The position numbers and the translations under genes were made by a program. From Trueperaceae bacterium (GTDB lineage Bacteria; Deinococcota; Deinococci; Deinococcales; Trueperaceae), in assembly GCA_040905465.1 (NCBI GenBank), contig JBBDRK010000060.1, positions 1 to 11,318 of the forward strand: a stretch of DNA of 11,318 nucleotides, read 5' to 3'. Within the stretch, counting starts at the first letter, position 1, and the number at the start of each line of letters is the position of its first letter. Of this stretch, positions 49 through 9,951 are shown in pieces. The notes under the pieces are model-generated. The model saw only the letters and a list, made by a program, of their open reading frames with translations. It had not been told where the DNA came from and searched no databases.

Positions 49-1116
49 TCAGTTGGACGCCGGAGCTACCGCCGGAGCCTTGGCCCGGCCGGGAACCAGC
101 AGCAGCTTGACTCCGCGTTTCGACTCGAAGTCGTCGAAGGCCTCACGCCACTCTCCGAGCGAGTAGCTGTGACTGATGACAGATTCGGCGTCGACGAGGC
201 CCTCGCCGAGCAGCCGGAGCGCCCGCAACCACGATTCGGAGGTACTGGCGTTGCTGCCGCTGACCTCGAGCTCCCGGTAGCAGACCTGGTCGAAGTCCAG
301 GGCTACCGGTTTGCCGAACAGGCCGACCTGCAGGTAGCGGCCGCGTCGGCGCGCGAGGGTAAGGAGCTGCGTGGCGGCCGGACCGGCGCCGGAGCACTCG
401 ATCACCACGTCGGCGCCGTGACCCTCAACGGTCAGCCCGGCCAACAGTTCCTGCGGATCCTGTTCATCTACCACCACCGTGTGACTCGCTCCCAGTCGTC
501 GTGCCAGAGCCAGCCGCTCCTGGTCGGCGGCCGTGCCCAGCATCACCACTGTGGCGCCTGCGGCGCGAGCTACCTGACCGGCGAGCAGTCCGATCGCACC
601 GGGACCGGCGATCGCCACCACGTCTCCGGCACGGATCGCAGGCTTTCCCAGGAGGGCGTGGGCCACGCAGGCCAGCGGCTCGGTCAAAGCGCCCGCCTTG
701 TCGCTCACGTTGTCGGGCAAGCGGTGCAAGTTGCGAGCGGGCACCACGAGATGTCGGGCGAAGCCGCCGTCGATGGCGGAACCGATCGAGCGTCGCTCGG
801 GGCAGAGGTTCGACTGGCCGGCGCGACAGTAGCGGCAGCGGGAGCAGGTGGAGAAGTAGGTTTCGCTGGTGACCCGGTCGCCCTCCAGCACGCCGGCAGC
901 GCCCGGCCCCAGCGCAACTACCCTGCCGGCGACCTCGTGGCCCAGCACCACCGGCGGACTGCAGCGGAACTCGTCGTGATAGATGTGCAGGTCGGTCCCG
1001 CAGATTCCGGCGGCGCTCACCTCGACGAGAGCTTCGCCCGGTCCCGGCGCCGGCTCGGCTATTTCGCGCAGCTCGACGTTGCCGCTTCCCGCGGCCACTT
1101 TCATTACGGCTTCCAT
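49..1116 (-). CDS. Zinc-dependent medium-chain dehydrogenase (sorbitol/L-iditol/threonine dehydrogenase-like), ~355 aa
   Basis: Catalytic-Zn motifs GICGTD, GHE and TEP; structural-Zn cluster CSRCRYC...C; Rossmann GPGAIG. Start moved from 1326 to ATG 1116 (MEAVMK), which is where the MDR fold begins and follows an AGGAAGGA SD-like sequence. The longer ORF would run through a terminator. Confidence 0.93.
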
Positions 1117-1166
1117 TCGGGGCTTCCTTCCTGACTCAGCCGGCGTTGCAATCGCGGTCAACCGCG

Positions 1167-1207
1167 AAAAACCGCAGGCCGGACACGAACTGGTGTCCGG
1201 CCTGCGG
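1167..1207 (-). terminator. Intrinsic terminator
   Basis: Perfect 15-bp stem (1172-1186 / 1193-1207) with a 6-nt loop, followed on the minus strand by TTTTT (1171-1167). Confidence 0.88.
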
Positions 1208-1483
1208 GGCCGGGGGATCATGCGGGGCTGCAGCCCCATACCCCGATGATAGCCCACCACCGGCCACTCCAAGTGAGTCCCGGCCATATTCGTAGCCTGG
1301 CGCTCCATGGTGCCACCTTCAGCCATCTCCCCAGTTGCCGTTGTAGCCCGCCCCGGCCGAGTCGACCGAAACCGTGTCGACAGCCTGAGCGGTCAGCGAC
1401 GAACCCGGCACCCCTGCCGAATCCGCCAACACGTTCGATCGATCGTCGGGCGGCGTCTCCACGCCCCGCTGCTCCCCCCGGAT
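1167..1483 (-). ncRNA. Candidate structured ncRNA or long cis-regulatory leader, family unassigned
   Basis: Bounded by a promoter (1490-1518) and a terminator (1167-1207). 5' arm 1481-1463 pairs with 3' arm 1228-1210. Internal hairpins contain G-U pairs on the minus strand. No convincing protein-coding ORF inside. Confidence 0.6.
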
Positions 1484-1489
1484 AAGCAC

Positions 1490-1518
1490 ATGATATGACG
1501 CCGGCAAGGAGCCGGCAA
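1490..1518 (-). promoter_or_regulatory. Sigma70-type promoter TTGCCG-N17-TATCAT
   Basis: -35 TTGCCG (1518-1513), 17-nt spacer, -10 TATCAT (1495-1490). Predicted start at A1483, immediately before the 5' pairing arm. Confidence 0.7.
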
Positions 1519-1583
1519 AGATGCCAACTACTCCCAACGTAGATACAAATGCATCCCTTGCATCCACCGTCGGGGGAACCGAG

Positions 1584-2414
1584 TCAGTCGCCGGTCTCCG
1601 CTGCCTCGTCGGCCTCGACCTCCACTGGCGAGCTGTAGTTACGGCGAAGCCAACGGCTGAGTCCGTCGAGCCCGGGAAACAGCGTACGTTCGGTGATGTT
1701 CGCCTGGTCCAGCTTGTCGCGGACCTCCCACTTGATCTCTGCCGGCACGATGATCTTGCGCCACAATCGCGGGTGGGTGCGCAACCAGGCGTCTGGACCG
1801 GAGTGAGAGTCGCCGTAGACGGAGAACAAGGCGTACTGATTGACGATCCTCGGGTCGACCGCCGGCGGCTCGAAGAAGAGCATCACCGGATCCTCTGCCA
1901 GCTCGTCGAACTGGGCAAGTGTGGGCGCCACCTCCGCCAGCATGTCGGCGGTGAAAACGGCCGAGCCCTCGCGGTCGAGGCCCTCGACGAGTGCCTGCGG
2001 CAACAGTCGGTGGACCTCGTTGTAATCGACCGCCCATACCTCGCCGTCGTCGTCCATAAGGTGCAGGTAGGCGGTAACGAAGTGCAGCGCCACGAACGGC
2101 GAAAAGGTCCAGTCCACCAGCCGTGTCGGCAGGCCGTGATGCTGGGCCAGCGCCAGCCAGTGCCACACCGTGTCCTGGTTCACGTCGCCGCGCTGGGCGT
2201 ACTTCCGGAAGTTGCGGAGCAGATGGGGCTCGAGTTTGGCGTACGGACCACGCAAGGACATCAGGGCGGTCCTGAGGTCCTCGCCGGCGACCGCCTCGCC
2301 GTGGAAGGCGTACGGCGAACGGTGGCGGGCGATGCGTGGGTTCCAGGCGTCTCGGAACAGCAATTCCTGCAGGTGAATCCAGTCCTTGGCCCGCACCACC
2401 TGCTCGGTCTCCAC
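1584..2414 (-). CDS. FRG domain-containing protein, 276 aa
   Basis: RSPYAFHG (FRG-like), WLALAQHHGLPTRLVDWTFSPFVALHF, RIVNQYALFS and ITERTLFPGLDG are typical FRG-family blocks. GTG start lies 5 nt after the SDR stop. Confidence 0.92.
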   Translation of the reverse strand: METEQVVRAKDWIHLQELLFRDAWNPRIARHRSPYAFHGEAVAGEDLRTALMSLRGPYAKLEPHLLRNFRKYAQRGDVNQDTVWHWLALAQHHGLPTRLVDWTFSPFVALHFVTAYLHLMDDDGEVWAVDYNEVHRLLPQALVEGLDREGSAVFTADMLAEVAPTLAQFDELAEDPVMLFFEPPAVDPRIVNQYALFSVYGDSHSGPDAWLRTHPRLWRKIIVPAEIKWEVRDKLDQANITERTLFPGLDGLSRWLRRNYSSPVEVEADEAAETGD

Positions 2415-3453: not shown

Positions 3454-5118
3454 ATGTCGAGTGATGCTGGCGCCGGACGATCGTTGTCCCGGCGCATCCA
3501 CGAGTTGGCGAAAGGGGCGTTCGGCTACAGCGACCTGCGGCCTGGCCAGGAGCGGGCCATCCAGGCCGTGGTGGAGGGGCGCGATGCGCTGGTGGTGATG
3601 CCAACCGGTTCGGGCAAATCGGCCATCTATCAGGTAGCGGGCATGCTGATCGAAGGCAAGACGGTGGTGGTGTCACCACTGTTGGCGCTTCAGCGCGATC
3701 AGGTAGAGGCACTGGCCGAGCACGGCGCCGACGGCGGCCAGGCCGAGGCGCTCAACTCGACGCTGACCCGGGATGAACGCGAGGAACTGCTCGAGCGGGT
3801 GGCGTCGGGCGAGCTGGAGTTCCTGTTCCTGGCACCCGAGCAGTTCTCGAGCGCCGACACCCTCGAACGGTTGCGCGCGGCGCCGCCGTCACTGTTCGTC
3901 ATCGACGAAGCGCACTGCGTCACGGAGTGGGGACACGACTTTAGGCCGGAGTATCTGCAGTTGGGCGCTGCCATCGAGGCGTTGGGCAATCCCCGGGTGC
4001 TGGCACTGACGGCTACGGCCGCCTCGCCGGTGCGAGACGAGATAGTTCAGAGGCTGGGGATGCGCGATCCCGAGGTGATCGTGCACGGCTTCGACCGGCC
4101 GAACCTCGAGCTGAAGGTGGAGCGGGTGGCCGGCGAGGAGGAGAAGTTCGAGCGCCTCCTCGAGATGCTGCCGGTCCTGGGTCGGCCGGGCATCGTCTAT
4201 GTGGCGACGCGGCAACATGCCGATGAGCTCGCCGAGCGGCTCCGCCAGGAAGGCGTGGAGGCAGCCGCCTATCACGCCGGCCACGACAAGCGGGAGCGTC
4301 AACGGGTGCAGTCGGCGTTCATGGACGACGAACTCGAGGCGATAGTGGCCACCACGGCTTTCGGCATGGGCGTCGACAAGGCGCATGTGGCGTTCGTGAT
4401 CCATTACGACATCACCGGCTCGCTCGACGCTTACTACCAGCAGATCGGCCGGGCAGGTCGTGACGGGGAGGCGGCCGACGCCATCTTGCTGTACCGGCCG
4501 GATGATCTCCGGTTGCAGCGGTTTCTCAACAGCGGTACCGCGATAGACGCAGACACCCACGAGCGCATCGCGACTCTCATCGACAGCGCCGGCGGGCCGG
4601 TCGATGCCGGCGAACTGCGCGAAGCTACCGGCCTTTCGGTCACCCGGCTACAGACGGTGCTGAACCATCTCGAGGAGGTGGGTGCGGTGACCGTTGGTGG
4701 CGACGGGATGGTCTGCCGCGTACCAGGCGGACCGTCGCCCGCAGAAGCTGCCGAGGCGGCCCAGAAGCTGCAGGAGCGCCACAAGTCGTTCGAGAAGTCG
4801 CGCGTCGAAATGATGCGGGGCTATGCCGAGGTGGAGGGGTGCCGCCGTGAATACCTGCTCTCCTACTTCGGCGAGAGCTACGATCCGCCGTGTGGGCACT
4901 GCGACAGGTGCGTAGCCGGTGCAGGGATCGAGCGGGCCGCAACCGGGCCGTTCCCGGTCGGAGGACGGGTGGTGCACGAAAGCTTCGGCGACGGCCAGGT
5001 GGTGCGCTACGAGGAGGGCAAGGTCGTGGTGCTGTTCGACGGGATCGGCTACCAGGCACTGGCACTGGACATAGTCAGTGAGCACGGCATCCTGCAGGTG
5101 ACAGACGGAGCTTCCTGA
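3454..5118 (+). CDS. recQ: RecQ-family ATP-dependent DNA helicase (no HRDC; wHTH insert; SH3/Tudor-like tail)
   Basis: Motif 0 FGYSDLRPGQ, MPTGSGKS, DEAHC, WGHDFRPEY, LTATA, AFGMGVDK, QIGRAGRDG and the Zn site CRR...CGHCDRC. GGGGGG SD upstream. Confidence 0.93.
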   Translation: MSSDAGAGRSLSRRIHELAKGAFGYSDLRPGQERAIQAVVEGRDALVVMPTGSGKSAIYQVAGMLIEGKTVVVSPLLALQRDQVEALAEHGADGGQAEALNSTLTRDEREELLERVASGELEFLFLAPEQFSSADTLERLRAAPPSLFVIDEAHCVTEWGHDFRPEYLQLGAAIEALGNPRVLALTATAASPVRDEIVQRLGMRDPEVIVHGFDRPNLELKVERVAGEEEKFERLLEMLPVLGRPGIVYVATRQHADELAERLRQEGVEAAAYHAGHDKRERQRVQSAFMDDELEAIVATTAFGMGVDKAHVAFVIHYDITGSLDAYYQQIGRAGRDGEAADAILLYRPDDLRLQRFLNSGTAIDADTHERIATLIDSAGGPVDAGELREATGLSVTRLQTVLNHLEEVGAVTVGGDGMVCRVPGGPSPAEAAEAAQKLQERHKSFEKSRVEMMRGYAEVEGCRREYLLSYFGESYDPPCGHCDRCVAGAGIERAATGPFPVGGRVVHESFGDGQVVRYEEGKVVVLFDGIGYQALALDIVSEHGILQVTDGAS

Positions 5119-5136
5119 AACGGGCGAGTGTCCGCT

Positions 5137-5178
5137 CGAATCAGCTTACAGAGCGTCCCGCCCAAATGCGCCTACCCT
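5137..5178 (+). promoter_or_regulatory. Conserved upstream box plus -10 element for P1
   Basis: CGAATCAGCTTACAGAGC (5137-5154) matches 7554-7571 at 16 of 18 positions; TACCCT (5173-5178) follows. Confidence 0.55.
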
Positions 5179-5208
5179 GACGGAGAGTCCAATTCTAGGG
5201 GGGACCAC

Positions 5209-6351
5209 ATGGCAGCATTTAAACGAACACTCACCTTGCTGATGATCTTGGCGTTGACCGCCTTCGGAGCGGGTATCGCGCAGGACGATCAGCAGGATGA
5301 TCAGGACCAGCAGCAGGAGCAGGAGCAGCAGCAGTCCCAGGAAGAGGAGACCAGCACCAGGACGGTCGAGATACGTGGGGAGGAAGTCGCCCCGCTCGGT
5401 GAGATTCAAGTCGGCGACGCCCAGCAATTCGATGGTGAGACCGCAACGGTCGAAATCGAGGTGGAGACGGGAGCCATCGTCTTTACCGCCGAAAGTGCCG
5501 GCGATCAGCATCCCAACATCGATCTCGTGGGCCCAAACGGTTTCTACGAGCGCTTCGAGGTCGACGATGACACCGACGCCCAGACGGTCGTAGACGGGCT
5601 CTTGCCCGGGGTCTACTCGATCGCCGCCAGCGACGAAGGTCTGCAGCTGGCGCATACCATCCTCGAGGTAACCGCGGGCCAGGCCGTCAACGTGAATATT
5701 GCGCTGCAGGAGCTCGCGGCCTACGAGGAAGGAACGTTCCGGGCCGGTGATGAAACCACCTTCCCGAACGAAGCTTTCCGGGCGGAGGACCCGCAGCCGA
5801 TCGAGAACGCCGACTTCGGTGAAGTGAGCGTCGAGACAGATAACGACAACGCACGCTTCGTCGTAACGGGTCCCAACGGTTACTCGCAGGAGTTCACGGG
5901 CGCCTTCACGGCCAGCGACCTGTCGCCTGGCATCTACGTGATCGCCGGTACCGCGGAGGGTACCTATGCGCTCGAAGGCACCCTGAGCGGGGCCAGAATC
6001 GCGACTTCCGCCGTTGAGGTGAACGTAGCGCAGACCGTGAGAATGGTGCCTGTCGCCGACTTCACCGGGGCGGAAACCGAAGAGGCCGAAGCTGTTACTG
6101 AGGACGTCGAGGACGTCGCCGGCGGTGGCGAGGCTCAGGAGGTCGAGACCGATGAGGTCGACGCTGAACAAGATGCAGACACCGAGCAGGTAGACACCGA
6201 AGAAGAAGTCGATACCGAGCAGGTAGAGACGGAAGAGGAAGCCGACACCGAGGAAGAAGTCGACACCGAGGAAGAAGTCGACACCGACGAACCGACCGAC
6301 ACGACCGAAGACGACGACACGGAGACCGAGGACGACGAGCAGCAGAACTGA
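5209..6351 (+). CDS. P1: secreted, highly acidic protein with two PEGA/prealbumin-like beta-sandwich repeats and an Asp/Glu tail, 380 aa
   Basis: ATG 5209 after AGGGGGGA; Sec signal MAAFKRTLTLLMILALTAFGAGIA/Q; internal repeat (VGPNGF...LLPGVYSIA and TGPNGY...LSPGIYVIA); clear paralog of 7634-8956. The fold assignment is inference. Confidence 0.85.
   Translation: MAAFKRTLTLLMILALTAFGAGIAQDDQQDDQDQQQEQEQQQSQEEETSTRTVEIRGEEVAPLGEIQVGDAQQFDGETATVEIEVETGAIVFTAESAGDQHPNIDLVGPNGFYERFEVDDDTDAQTVVDGLLPGVYSIAASDEGLQLAHTILEVTAGQAVNVNIALQELAAYEEGTFRAGDETTFPNEAFRAEDPQPIENADFGEVSVETDNDNARFVVTGPNGYSQEFTGAFTASDLSPGIYVIAGTAEGTYALEGTLSGARIATSAVEVNVAQTVRMVPVADFTGAETEEAEAVTEDVEDVAGGGEAQEVETDEVDAEQDADTEQVDTEEEVDTEQVETEEEADTEEEVDTEEEVDTDEPTDTTEDDDTETEDDEQQN
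6178..6290 (+). repeat. Coding tandem repeat (DTEQV/DTEEEV units, 15-18 nt)
   Basis: Repeated GACACCGA(A/G)GAAGAAGTC-like units encoding DTEQVDTEEEVDTEQVETEEEADTEEEVDTEEEVDTDE. Confidence 0.85.
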
Positions 6352-7465: not shown

Positions 7466-7553
7466 TCCGAACCGACCGACGGCGAAGGGCCCGGCTAGAG
7501 CTCGCTGCCGCCAGGCGTGCCCGAGGTGCGAAGCGGACGTGAGAGCCAAGTTC

Positions 7554-7594
7554 CGAGTCAACTTACAGAGCAGCCTGACTCGCGTCGCTATGGT
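7554..7594 (+). promoter_or_regulatory. Conserved upstream box plus -10 element for P2
   Basis: CGAGTCAACTTACAGAGC (7554-7571) followed by TATGGT (7589-7594), at nearly the same spacing as upstream of P1. Confidence 0.55.
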
Positions 7595-7633
7595 GAATGG
7601 TGCGCAAGATGCTCGATTCAAAGGGGGGAAGCA

Positions 7634-8956
7634 ATGGCAGCCTTAAACCGAACGATCGCATTCGCGATGGTGGTCCTGTTGGCCATCGTTGGTGCCGTAA
7701 TGGCTCAGGACGACAACGATCAGGAACAACAGGACCAGGAGCAACAGGCAGAAACGCGGATGGTGGGCGGCGAGGAGTTCGTGCCCGTGGGCGAGGCGCG
7801 CGTGGGCGAGCCCGCGCCGTTCGATACCGAGAACGAACAGGTGGATGTCGAGGTCGAAACAGGCGCCATCGTCTTCACCGGCTCGACGCCCGACGACCAG
7901 CACCCGAACATAGACCTGGTCGGGCCCGATGACTACTTCAACCACTTCGAGATCGACGATGAGGCCGATGCGGAGCGGGTGATCGATAACCTGCTCCCCG
8001 GGGTCTACTCGGTAGCGGCCACCGACAACGGACTGCAACTCGTGCACACCCTCGTCGAAGTGGTGGCCGGTCAGGCGGTACGTGTCGACCTGGGGCTCGA
8101 TCAGGCCGTTACCGATTTCGTTCCGGGCAGGTTCGCCAACAGGGGCGCCCGCACCGCCTTCCCGGCTGACGGCTTCCGGGCGGGGGACCCGAGGACCATC
8201 GACAACGCCGAATTCGGCGGGGTTGCGGTCGAGACGGACAACGAGGACGCCCGCTTCGTCATCACCGGCCCGGACGCCTACTCGCGCGAGTTCACTGGCG
8301 CCTTCGACGTAAACGACCTTATGCCGGGGGTGTATGTCATCGCCGGCACTGCCGATGGAAGCCAGATCACCACCAGCGCAGTCGAGGTCGAGGTGTCCAG
8401 GGCCACCACGATGGTTCCGGCGTTCACGACCGTAGCGGAGACCGACGAGGTGGACGGTGACGTCGCCGGCGGCGGCGAGGCCGAAGAGGGACAGGACCAG
8501 ACCGACGGCGAGCAGCCTGCTGACGAGGAGGAGCAGCCCGAAGGTGAGGCACAGGAGGAGCCGGTAGAGGATACCGAGGAGCCGGCCGAGCCCGAAAATG
8601 GTGAAGAGGGAGCCGCTGGTGACGAAGCGGAGGCTGAGCAGGACGAGATCGCCGGCGGCGGCGAGGCCCAGCAGACCGTCAGGGTTTCGCTGGTAGACGG
8701 CGCGATCGATATGCCCAGCGAGATCCCGGCGGGAACAGTCACCTTCGAGGTGACCAACGACGGCACGATCGTTCACAACTTCGAGATCGAAGGCCAGGGA
8801 GTCGAGGAGACGTTCTCCCAGGATCTGCAGCCGGGCGACTCCAACACCATGACGGTCGACCTGGAGGCGGGCGAGTACTACGTCTACTGTCCGGTCGACG
8901 ATCATGAGGAGCAGGGCATGGCCATGGACCTGCAGGTTACCGACGAACAGCAGTAA
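7634..8956 (+). CDS. P2: secreted acidic P1 paralog fused to a C-terminal cupredoxin (plastocyanin/azurin-like) domain, 440 aa
   Basis: ATG 7634 after AGGGGGGA; signal peptide ending VMA/Q; shares ETGAIVFT, DQHPNIDLVGP, LLPGVYS and EFTGAF with P1; type-1 Cu ligands HNF...YCPVDDHEEQGM (C-x4-H-x4-M). Confidence 0.88.
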   Translation: MAALNRTIAFAMVVLLAIVGAVMAQDDNDQEQQDQEQQAETRMVGGEEFVPVGEARVGEPAPFDTENEQVDVEVETGAIVFTGSTPDDQHPNIDLVGPDDYFNHFEIDDEADAERVIDNLLPGVYSVAATDNGLQLVHTLVEVVAGQAVRVDLGLDQAVTDFVPGRFANRGARTAFPADGFRAGDPRTIDNAEFGGVAVETDNEDARFVITGPDAYSREFTGAFDVNDLMPGVYVIAGTADGSQITTSAVEVEVSRATTMVPAFTTVAETDEVDGDVAGGGEAEEGQDQTDGEQPADEEEQPEGEAQEEPVEDTEEPAEPENGEEGAAGDEAEAEQDEIAGGGEAQQTVRVSLVDGAIDMPSEIPAGTVTFEVTNDGTIVHNFEIEGQGVEETFSQDLQPGDSNTMTVDLEAGEYYVYCPVDDHEEQGMAMDLQVTDEQQ

Positions 8957-9150: not shown

Positions 9151-9951
9151 GTGAGGCTGGGCTGGGAACTCGATCCGGTACTGATCGGCACCCTGTTGAC
9201 GCTCGGCCTGGTCTACGGCCTGATGGCCGGACCATTGCGGGCCAGGCTCGGTAGGGACCTGAAGCTGCCACGGCGCCAAGCACTGATGTTCTCGGCCGGC
9301 CTGCTGGTCGCCTTTCTGACCGAGGCCTCGCCGTTGCACGAGCTGTCCGACCGCTACCTGCTGAGCGCCCACATGGTGCAGCATCTGCTGCTCAGTTACG
9401 TGGTAGCACCGCTGCTGCTGGCCGGCACACCGGGTTGGATGGCCCGCCCGCTGGTCGCCAATCGGATCGTCCTGCCGGCGTTCAGGGCGCTCGTCCATCC
9501 GCTGACAGCGTTCGCGGTTTTCAGCCTGGCCATTTCGCTCTGGCATCTGCCGATGGTGTACGAGGCGGCCCTGGGCAACCCGGTCATCCACCACCTGCAG
9601 CACCTCATCTTCTTGGCCCTTGCGCTGATCGTATGGTGGCCGCTGATGAGCCCGCTGGCTGAACTGCCGCGCCTGGGCTTCGGTCAGCAGGTGTTCTATC
9701 TGGTTGCCCTTCCGCTCGGACAGTTCTTCGTGGCCGCCATCCTCACATTCGCGCCCGAAGCGTTCTACCAGACCTATCAGGAAGCGCCGCGCATCCTGCC
9801 GATGTCGCCGGCTGCCGATCAGCAACTCGGTGGTGTGGTCATGAAGATCGTCAGCTTCATAGCCTTCGGGGTTCCACTCGTGGTGGCCTTCCTGCGCTGG
9901 TCGGCGGCAGACCGGCCGCGGGCGGCCGGAGCGGGTGGCGGGGCCCGCTAG
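9151..9951 (+). CDS. ctaG: Cytochrome c oxidase assembly protein, Caa3_CtaG family, 266 aa
   Basis: SPLHELSDRYLLSAHMVQHLLL...APLLLAGTP, LWHLP, HHLQH, WWPLMSP and DQQLGGVVMK motifs; polytopic membrane profile. GTG start has no SD. Confidence 0.9.
   Translation: MRLGWELDPVLIGTLLTLGLVYGLMAGPLRARLGRDLKLPRRQALMFSAGLLVAFLTEASPLHELSDRYLLSAHMVQHLLLSYVVAPLLLAGTPGWMARPLVANRIVLPAFRALVHPLTAFAVFSLAISLWHLPMVYEAALGNPVIHHLQHLIFLALALIVWWPLMSPLAELPRLGFGQQVFYLVALPLGQFFVAAILTFAPEAFYQTYQEAPRILPMSPAADQQLGGVVMKIVSFIAFGVPLVVAFLRWSAADRPRAAGAGGGAR

Follow-up and report, generated by a model that had tools for sequence, protein, structure and literature searches.

The window analysed here, a stretch of 11,318 nt of Trueperaceae DNA, carries a predicted minus-strand RNA whose conserved 5' module (1481-1455) has complementarity to the loop, and to part of the 5' stem, of a small hairpin RNA that is found across the family. 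We refer to the two kinds of RNA as G-type (for the G-rich 5' end in the window) and C-type (for the C-rich loop of the hairpin). From a comparison of the sequences, we lean towards the view that the window RNA is a base-pairing partner of the hairpin sRNA, as either a sponge or a leader through which the sRNA would control the downstream dehydrogenase. The first-pass annotation had described the window RNA as an orphan, which does not stand: the 5' module has relatives at 11 loci in five genera, and a complementary sRNA is present in the same genome.

The predicted RNA lies in a 468-nt spacer on the minus strand, between an FRG-domain gene and a gene for a Zn-dependent dehydrogenase (ADH), whose start is at 1116 (Table 1). 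The ADH product is Tdh-like but falls below the equivalog cut-offs. A 425-amino-acid open reading frame (49..1326, minus strand) runs through the terminator and the 3' arm of the RNA in frame into ADH. We consider this extension to be a GC-rich run-on and not the real N-terminus, because relatives keep the ADH start at 1116.

Table 1. Coordinates of the features of the RNA locus in the window, in the order in which they are read on the minus strand.
Feature	Position	Strand	Remarks
FRG-domain protein gene	1584..2414	-	Upstream of the RNA; matches PADLOC candidate defence family PDC-S15, E = 7e-38
Upstream element CATTTGYATCTA-N7-AGTA-N4-GCATCT	1519..1551	-	Conserved in the genus; abuts the -35
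Promoter-like site TTGCCG-N17-TATCAT	1490..1518	-	-35 TTGCCG at 1518-1513; -10 TATCAT at 1495-1490
5' arm, the G-rich motif CCGGGGGGAGCAGCGGGGC	1463..1481	-	19 nt; near-perfect complement of the hairpin-sRNA loop
GGAGAC word	1455..1460	-	With the G-rich motif, forms the conserved 5' module 1455..1481
Nested helix, 5' half CCCGACGAU	1442..1450	-	9 bp with 1250-1242; in the MFE
13-bp hairpin GGCGGAUUCGGCA / UGCCGGGUUCGUC	1398..1427	-	In the MFE
Nested helix, 3' half AUCAUCGGG	1242..1250	-	In the MFE
3' arm GCCCCGCAUGAUCCCCCGG	1210..1228	-	C-rich look-alike of the sRNA loop; pairs with the 5' arm
Intrinsic terminator	1167..1207	-	Stem 1207-1172, 15 bp (12 G-C), 6-nt loop, U5 at 1171-1167
ADH gene, Zn-dependent medium-chain dehydrogenase	49..1116	-	Downstream of the RNA; Pfam ADH_N + ADH_zinc_N

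All of the sequence features that the first-pass annotation had listed for the minus strand (the promoter-like site, the closing helix, the inner hairpins, and the 15-bp terminator) are present. A consensus scan of positions 900-1800 returned exactly the promoter-like site that had been claimed and just that one, versus 0.2 sites expected, and the consensus scanner also called the terminator, with 15 pairs, of which 12 are G-C. The G-rich motif begins 8 nt after the end of the -10 box, and 51 nt separate the terminator from the ADH start codon. The scan likewise agrees with the description of a non-coding region that has, on its minus strand, a promoter-like site and a strong terminator. The short open reading frames that overlap the RNA region (82, 79, 63, and 88 amino acids) have no Pfam match, and the codon-position G+C profile over the region is uninformative about coding. 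As had been claimed, the RNA belongs to no known class in Rfam: there were no gathering-level matches in the whole window, and at E ≤ 10 there were just sub-threshold matches in 1050-1650, mostly over the terminator hairpin. Contigs from an RNA run (X3) overlap the window at 983-1127 (the 5' end of ADH) and 1810-1889 only; because contigs cannot show RNA ends, the gap over the RNA shows nothing either way.

Elsewhere in the window, a RecQ-like helicase (3454-5118, plus strand), with DEAD, Helicase_C, and RecQ_Zn_bind domains, is a full-length match to DpdF from PADLOC (E = 1e-182). Despite this match, it may simply be RecQ. Two paralogue-like open reading frames on the plus strand (5128-6351 and 7517-8956) have weak CarboxypepD_reg-like matches at the same position in both. 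The second of these also has a cupredoxin domain, and a Caa3_CtaG assembly factor (9151-9951) adjoins them.

The window RNA folds well. As a 324-nt RNA, its minimum free energy (MFE) is -173.3 kcal/mol, versus -150.2 ± 5.2 kcal/mol for shuffled sequences (z = -4.48), and none of 100 shuffles was as stable, so the comparison with shuffles that had been proposed came out in favor of the RNA; the MFE structure contains the closing helix, the nested helix, and the 13-bp hairpin. Much of the z-score derives from the terminator and the closing helix, because z drops to -2.34 without the terminator (5 of 200 shuffles were as stable) and to -1.85 for the interior alone (8 of 200). The duplex of the 5' arm with the 3' arm has an energy of -33.4 kcal/mol, a value that just 1 of 500 dinucleotide shuffles of the body equalled. 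The motif's pairing with the 3' arm in the ensemble amounts to 86-100%, internal loop aside (pairing probability of 0.76-1.0 outside the internal loop). If the folded sequence is continued as far as the ADH start codon, the G-run is paired elsewhere in the MFE structure.

A length of about 300 nt and paired ends (the latter in the window species only) are shared with 6S RNA and Ms1, and a link to these RNAs had been raised in the first-pass annotation. If the window RNA were a stand-alone RNA of this kind, which acts through its fold and binds RNA polymerase, then the closing helix and the z-score of the whole RNA, both of which beat chance in the window genome, would be accounted for. Also, the niche of 6S RNA is not visibly occupied: the genome has no match to RF00013 at E ≤ 0.01, in a search that detects 6S RNA in only 5 of 14 control genomes. 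Against this, the interior of the RNA is multi-branched in both the MFE and the centroid structure, in place of a rod with a central bubble, and its own z-score is the modest one given above. Furthermore, the structure of a 6S- or Ms1-type RNA is expected to be conserved among close relatives, which can be examined within the genus.

We compared the window genome (G000) with the two other species of genus g1 (G001 and G002). Both keep the gene order of FRG, spacer, and ADH, with identities to the window of 77% and 74% for ADH and of 82% and 83% for FRG, and their spacers are 321 and 444 nt long. In an alignment, the three spacers share only the upstream element, a TATnnT (TAnnnT) box, and the first ~30 nt of the RNA, CCGGGGGG(N)CAGCGGGG..GGAGA. 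The G-rich motif is invariant in the genus except for one extra A in the window. A further ~60 nt after the 5' module, which include the 13-bp hairpin, are more weakly conserved. The remainder of the window RNA (its body, closing helix, and terminator) is specific to the window species. The RNA would be 147 nt long in the G001 spacer and 350 nt long in the G002 spacer. Neither species keeps the nested helix or has an equivalent of the 3' arm, and on the RNA strand of their spacers the consensus scanner called neither a terminator nor a full promoter. The downstream partner of the 5' motif is no better than in shuffled sequences, as 339 of 500 shuffles for G001 and 244 of 500 for G002 were as good. 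The end-paired rod is thus a feature of one species. BLAST of a 371-nt region found no second copy in the window genome and, across 40 relatives, only four short matches (26-32 nt, E of 0.005-0.009), all of them at other loci and none in the syntenic spacers.

The search for homologues and covariation therefore gave a divided answer, with relatives for the 5' module and no conservation of the body, the closing helix, or the terminator. In the three-sequence alignment of the 5' regions from genus g1, 3 of 20 consensus pairs keep pairing despite changes on both sides, and the consensus structure is weak (-12.75 kcal/mol, with a covariation term of -0.32). Judging from this alignment, some cross-species support exists within the body for the 13-bp hairpin alone. 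A DNA contig from a near strain (X4, which covers 1274-1515) has 13 differences from the window and leaves the motif untouched. Eight listed differences fall in the RNA body: four are unpaired, three break pairs in the MFE structure, and one strengthens the 13-bp hairpin (from G-U to G-C). In other words, three of the four listed changes at paired positions break pairs and none is compensatory (this tally covers the listed differences; 3 of the 13 are not shown).

Because the structure is not conserved among close relatives, we reject membership of the 6S/Ms1 class. There was also no match to RF00013 at E ≤ 10 in 1050-1650, nor a gathering-level match to any other family model in the window, and the broken pairs in the near strain likewise count against an RNA that acts through its fold. 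We consider such an RNA to be very improbable here, and a pairing partner of the sRNA, whether a decoy or a target, is more likely than a 6S-like RNA.

The upstream element has identical letters and identical spacing in all three genus-g1 species, within a spacer that otherwise cannot be aligned around it. Its TTGTATCTAC word is found again, inverted, ~60 nt upstream of the G-type copy in another genome (G014), which suggests a DNA-binding regulator, and the element is probably a regulator-binding site. A scan of metagenomes with the genus-specific upstream pattern gave no matches.

The partner of the 5' module was found within the window genome. Two more copies of the 17-mer motif are present there, on contigs C32 (hairpin at 27634-27708) and C74 (61073-61143). 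Read on the other strand, both are ~70-nt perfect hairpins with the complement of the motif as their 17-nt C-rich loop. The loop matches the motif of G001 and G002 exactly in complement (the extra A sets the window's motif apart). The C32 and C74 hairpins have TTGCAA-16/17-TAGAAT/CATAAT upstream and a U-run downstream. A covariance model that was built from 35 sequences identified this C-type sRNA in 64 of the 128 genomes of the family and in 28 of its 36 genera, with two copies in the window genome. The 22 pairs of the hairpin are 88.5% paired across the alignment of the 35 sequences, and at 12 of them both sides have changed; the loop does not vary. The covariation score was not reached by any of 500 shuffles, and slid registers were only 42-57% paired.

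The C-type hairpin appears to be limited to this family. The 17-mer, with at most one mismatch, is present in 51 of the 128 family genomes, which is far above the control with a reversed pattern. Among 185,579 species genomes, an exact 25-mer occurs at 28 loci, of which 24 are in genomes titled Truepera or Trueperaceae and 4 are in MAGs. In a phylum-wide scan, we fetched 20 of the many one-mismatch matches outside of the family; none of the 20 had the flanks of a hairpin, and several were in conserved coding sequence. On the evidence of the covariation and of these scans, the C-type hairpin is a real structured RNA family that is confined to Trueperaceae. At the loci of this sRNA, the Rfam search gave chance matches and an unrelated c-di-GMP-II riboswitch; no family matched the hairpin at E ≤ 1, and neither the G-type nor the C-type RNA is in Rfam 15.

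One of the hairpin sRNA genes has a c-di-GMP-II riboswitch ~1.6 kb upstream on the same strand (contig C32 of the window genome, L033, 3839-3922, minus strand; 66.2 bits, versus a gathering threshold of 53.5). In genus g14, the G-type RNA adjoins genes with GGDEF and EAL domains. A link of the two RNAs to c-di-GMP is only a thought.

How strong is the pairing between the two RNAs? Nowhere in the genome outside of the sRNA genes does the loop find a better binding site than the one in the window, whose energy is -39.0 kcal/mol, versus -44.1 kcal/mol for the sRNA's own antisense. The runner-up (C43:109826, -38.5 kcal/mol) is inside a coding gene, and the remaining sites are poly-G runs at contig ends. 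When the C32 sRNA was cofolded with the first 60 nt of the window RNA, the net energy was -27.5 kcal/mol, and none of 200 shuffles was as good (mean of -2.9 and minimum of -19.8 kcal/mol). The cofolded duplex takes in the loop and continues into the sRNA's 5' stem. With the fully folded 318-nt RNA in place of the first 60 nt, a net gain of -18.3 kcal/mol remains. Against the pairing model, for a 17-nt hairpin loop to form a full 17-bp helix, the stem must open. Also, the window's motif has an extra A relative to the perfect complement, and a single match within one edit is not rare in a genome with 67% G+C.

Long poly-G runs beside runs of N are found on six contigs of the window genome (C18, C29, C34, C49, C66, and C81), at or near the contig ends. 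These runs are probably artefacts of sequencing or assembly, and they dominate any search for G-rich targets.

The window RNA can be compared with sponge RNAs property by property. It has extended complementarity, at the energy given above, to the seed region of an sRNA from the same genome, and that sRNA is supported by covariation. It may have a transcription unit of its own: by the scan, the window has a promoter-like site and a terminator, and the relatives keep only the -10 box, with neither element called there. The full-length window RNA does not offer a single-stranded binding site, as the motif is 86-100% paired with the 3' arm. In this model of the fold, the site would be free only in the nascent RNA. 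With the 3' arm occupying the site once the RNA is finished, the sRNA would have to gain access during transcription or by strand displacement.

G-type RNAs were identified at 11 loci in 11 genomes. This count combines the pattern hits with regions that we inspected after scanning the 128 family genomes with a sequence model of the 5' module. Seven further regions from the model's matches were inspected, of which five are G-type, one is a C-type variant, and one is unclear; there were many weak matches besides. A looser gapped pattern gave 20 extra sites that we fetched, and most of these are coding or G-rich noise (the site in G047 is a C-type variant). The G-type RNA is present in all three genomes of genus g1, all five of genus g14, the single genomes of genera g13 and g15, and one of two genomes in genus g4. 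All 11 loci have a TAnnnT box 7-9 nt ahead of the motif, and at most of them a GGAGAC-like word follows the motif. At the six related loci that we tested with the consensus scanner, which include G001 and G002, it called no full -35/-10 promoter and no terminator.

The gene contexts of the G-type loci are unrelated to one another. In genus g1, the RNA is in front of ADH, and in genus g13 it follows an FRG gene (77% identical) at a distance of ~150 nt and precedes a gluconokinase-like gene. In both of these genera, then, the gene directly ahead of it is a candidate phage-defence gene (FRG / PDC-S15). Among the best 80 loci of FRG homologues in metagenomes, which are at most 60% identical, none had the motif within two edits. 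In genera g14 and g15, the RNA is located between the end of a gene and a convergent EAL-domain gene, with no coding target on that strand, and it ends in a stem-loop and a short U-tract that we saw by eye (the scanner did not call them). G043 has another site (contig C17, L205, near 420) at which the motif, with a 2-nt insert, is followed by a long G-C hairpin that contains GCCCCGC, and a TTGATGCAACTGCATCAA palindrome is upstream. This is possibly a second G-type RNA in one genome.

The C-type sRNA was found in 9 of the 11 genomes that have a G-type RNA. The exceptions are G042, whose assembly is 62% complete, and G015, which is 92% complete. In the first six G-type sites that we examined, four have a bulge or mismatch at the center, and the sites in G001 and G002 are perfect complements of the loop. 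The deviations are the extra A in the window, an A for G in G042 and G043 (genus g14), and a U for G in G005 (genus g4). G-type RNAs were seen in just 5 of the 28 genera that have the C-type sRNA, which rules them out as its main or universal partner.

These other loci bear on whether the window RNA is simply a leader of ADH. A cis-acting attenuator that senses a metabolite or a protein, independently of any sRNA, could hold the G-rich 5' end in an aptamer or in a switch between alternative pairings. In favor of such a leader, the RNA is directly upstream of ADH on the same strand in all three genus-g1 genomes, and a C-rich stretch that precedes the ADH start is the partner of the G-run in all three MFE structures; in the window, the terminator's position shortly before the start codon and the lack of another promoter-like site in 900-1800 fit as well. 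However, the same 5' module is present in four other genera without ADH downstream, including between convergent genes, and the downstream pairing in G001 and G002 is the one that does not exceed that of shuffles. Those two species also lack the terminator. By inspection, the window has no anti-terminator either: we saw only a 7-bp alternative with a second GCCCCGC word, which is too weak to count. Nor did any riboswitch or aptamer family in Rfam match, at the gathering threshold or at E ≤ 10. We therefore regard an sRNA-independent leader as quite improbable.

The G-type loci also suggest where these RNAs came from. The C-type covariance model matches them in antisense and only over loop positions 28-46, and the other half of the stem has been lost. 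In G014, the G-type copy has ~36 nt of antisense similarity to the genome's own C-type gene, which suggests that the G-type RNA originated as an inverted partial copy of the sRNA gene. This remnant homology might instead mean that the G-type loci are pseudo-copies of the sRNA gene in the course of decay, or sites at which a protein binds DNA, with no function at the RNA level; the terminator in the window would then merely end the transcription of FRG. That the scanner called no promoter at the relatives' loci would fit, as would the occurrence of the TTGTATCTAC word in both orientations, which is how DNA sites behave. But under neutral decay, 17-19 nt would not stay invariant in three species with flanking spacers that cannot be aligned, and a TAnnnT box would not stay 7-9 nt from the motif at every one of the loci. 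Also, what has been retained is only the complement of the loop and the 5' stem, which fits selection for pairing and not for the function of a hairpin or of a symmetric DNA site. An explanation without RNA function is unlikely in our view.

If the window RNA is a pairing partner of the sRNA, then the minus-strand RNA that the locus would make, or at least begin, would work through its first ~27 nt (1481-1455). This G-rich stretch would pair with the 17-nt C-rich loop and with part of the 5' stem of the ~70-nt sRNA. The G-type RNA, which probably arose as an inverted partial copy of the C-type gene, would be a high-affinity partner of the sRNA in one of two ways. It could act as a decoy or sponge, which would titrate the sRNA and be degraded together with it, or it could be the 5' leader by which the sRNA controls the downstream dehydrogenase. 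The stand-alone copies in genera g14 and g15 favor the decoy as the ancestral role. Within genus g1, the role of target is favored because G001 and G002 have leaders without a terminator.

Two acquisitions would set the window species apart. The C-rich 3' arm would mask the site in the finished RNA, and the terminator would make most transcripts end as a separate RNA of ~315 nt. Pairing would then take place mainly on the nascent RNA. Because there is no other promoter-like site in 900-1800, expression of ADH would depend on read-through of the terminator. The sequences show the complementarity, its conservation, its place after a -10 box, and a partner sRNA that is real as a structured family; that the locus is transcribed, that the two RNAs pair in vivo, and in which direction regulation would run are matters that we infer.

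A more detailed version of this model can be offered tentatively, and we doubt that all of its parts are correct. It is a module of two RNAs, with a family-wide hairpin sRNA and an anti-sRNA of a subclade. The anti-sRNA would have originated as an inverted partial copy, and its 5' end would act as an antisense trap of ~25 nt to open and remove the hairpin. In the window species, the mimic of the loop, which masks the RNA's own site, together with the terminator would have turned it into a kinetically gated sponge that couples the availability of the sRNA to read-through into the dehydrogenase gene.

To our knowledge, almost nothing is known about the RNA regulators of Trueperaceae, and our literature searches for small RNAs of Truepera and for C-rich small RNAs of Deinococcus found no relevant paper among those listed. 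A run of C in an exposed loop is a recognized mode of action of sRNAs with C-rich loops, such as RoxS/RsaE and the 6C RNA of Actinobacteria (Rfam RF01066). The C-type sRNA shares such a run with these RNAs, and it differs from them in that it is a single hairpin of ~70 nt that doubles as its own terminator and has one invariant 17-nt loop. The window RNA also resembles sRNAs that derive from 5' UTRs or attenuators, and leaders that are controlled by sRNAs: it is a promoter-proximal RNA with a terminator just before a gene, and in the sister species the leader is continuous into the gene. 5'-UTR- or attenuator-derived systems usually sense a ligand or the ribosome, whereas the only conserved element here would be a site for a trans-acting sRNA.

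The closest parallels are pairs of a sponge and an sRNA. These include RosA of Bacillus subtilis, with the C-rich sRNAs RoxS and FsrA, and RsaI of Staphylococcus, with RsaE. A sponge of that kind is a stand-alone non-coding RNA of a few hundred nucleotides with its own promoter and terminator, and its pairing is proposed to open a stem-loop of the sRNA (PMC8216469). The likeness of the window RNA to RosA and its pairing with RoxS is in the G-rich regions that are complementary to the C-rich stem-loop region of a conserved sRNA (PMC8216469). The differences are several. The window RNA has no sequence relation to RosA and has one site, at its extreme 5' end. In place of short G-rich seeds, the window RNA has 17-27 nt of near-continuous complementarity. 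Unlike in RosA, the site in the window apparently derives from an antisense copy of the sRNA gene, is masked by the RNA itself, and lies upstream of a gene, and it is known here from sequence alone. An sRNA with a sponge or a target is thus a known kind of system; the two RNA families, the apparent antisense origin, and the self-masking are new.

There is a methodological caution in this case, as an apparent orphan that is GC-rich and folds well was explained only by searching for its complement in the same genome. If the proposed pairing is true, then the window is an entry point to a family-wide sRNA of Trueperaceae and to its natural antagonist, and it would show clearly one way in which sponges arise, by antisense copying of the sRNA gene itself.
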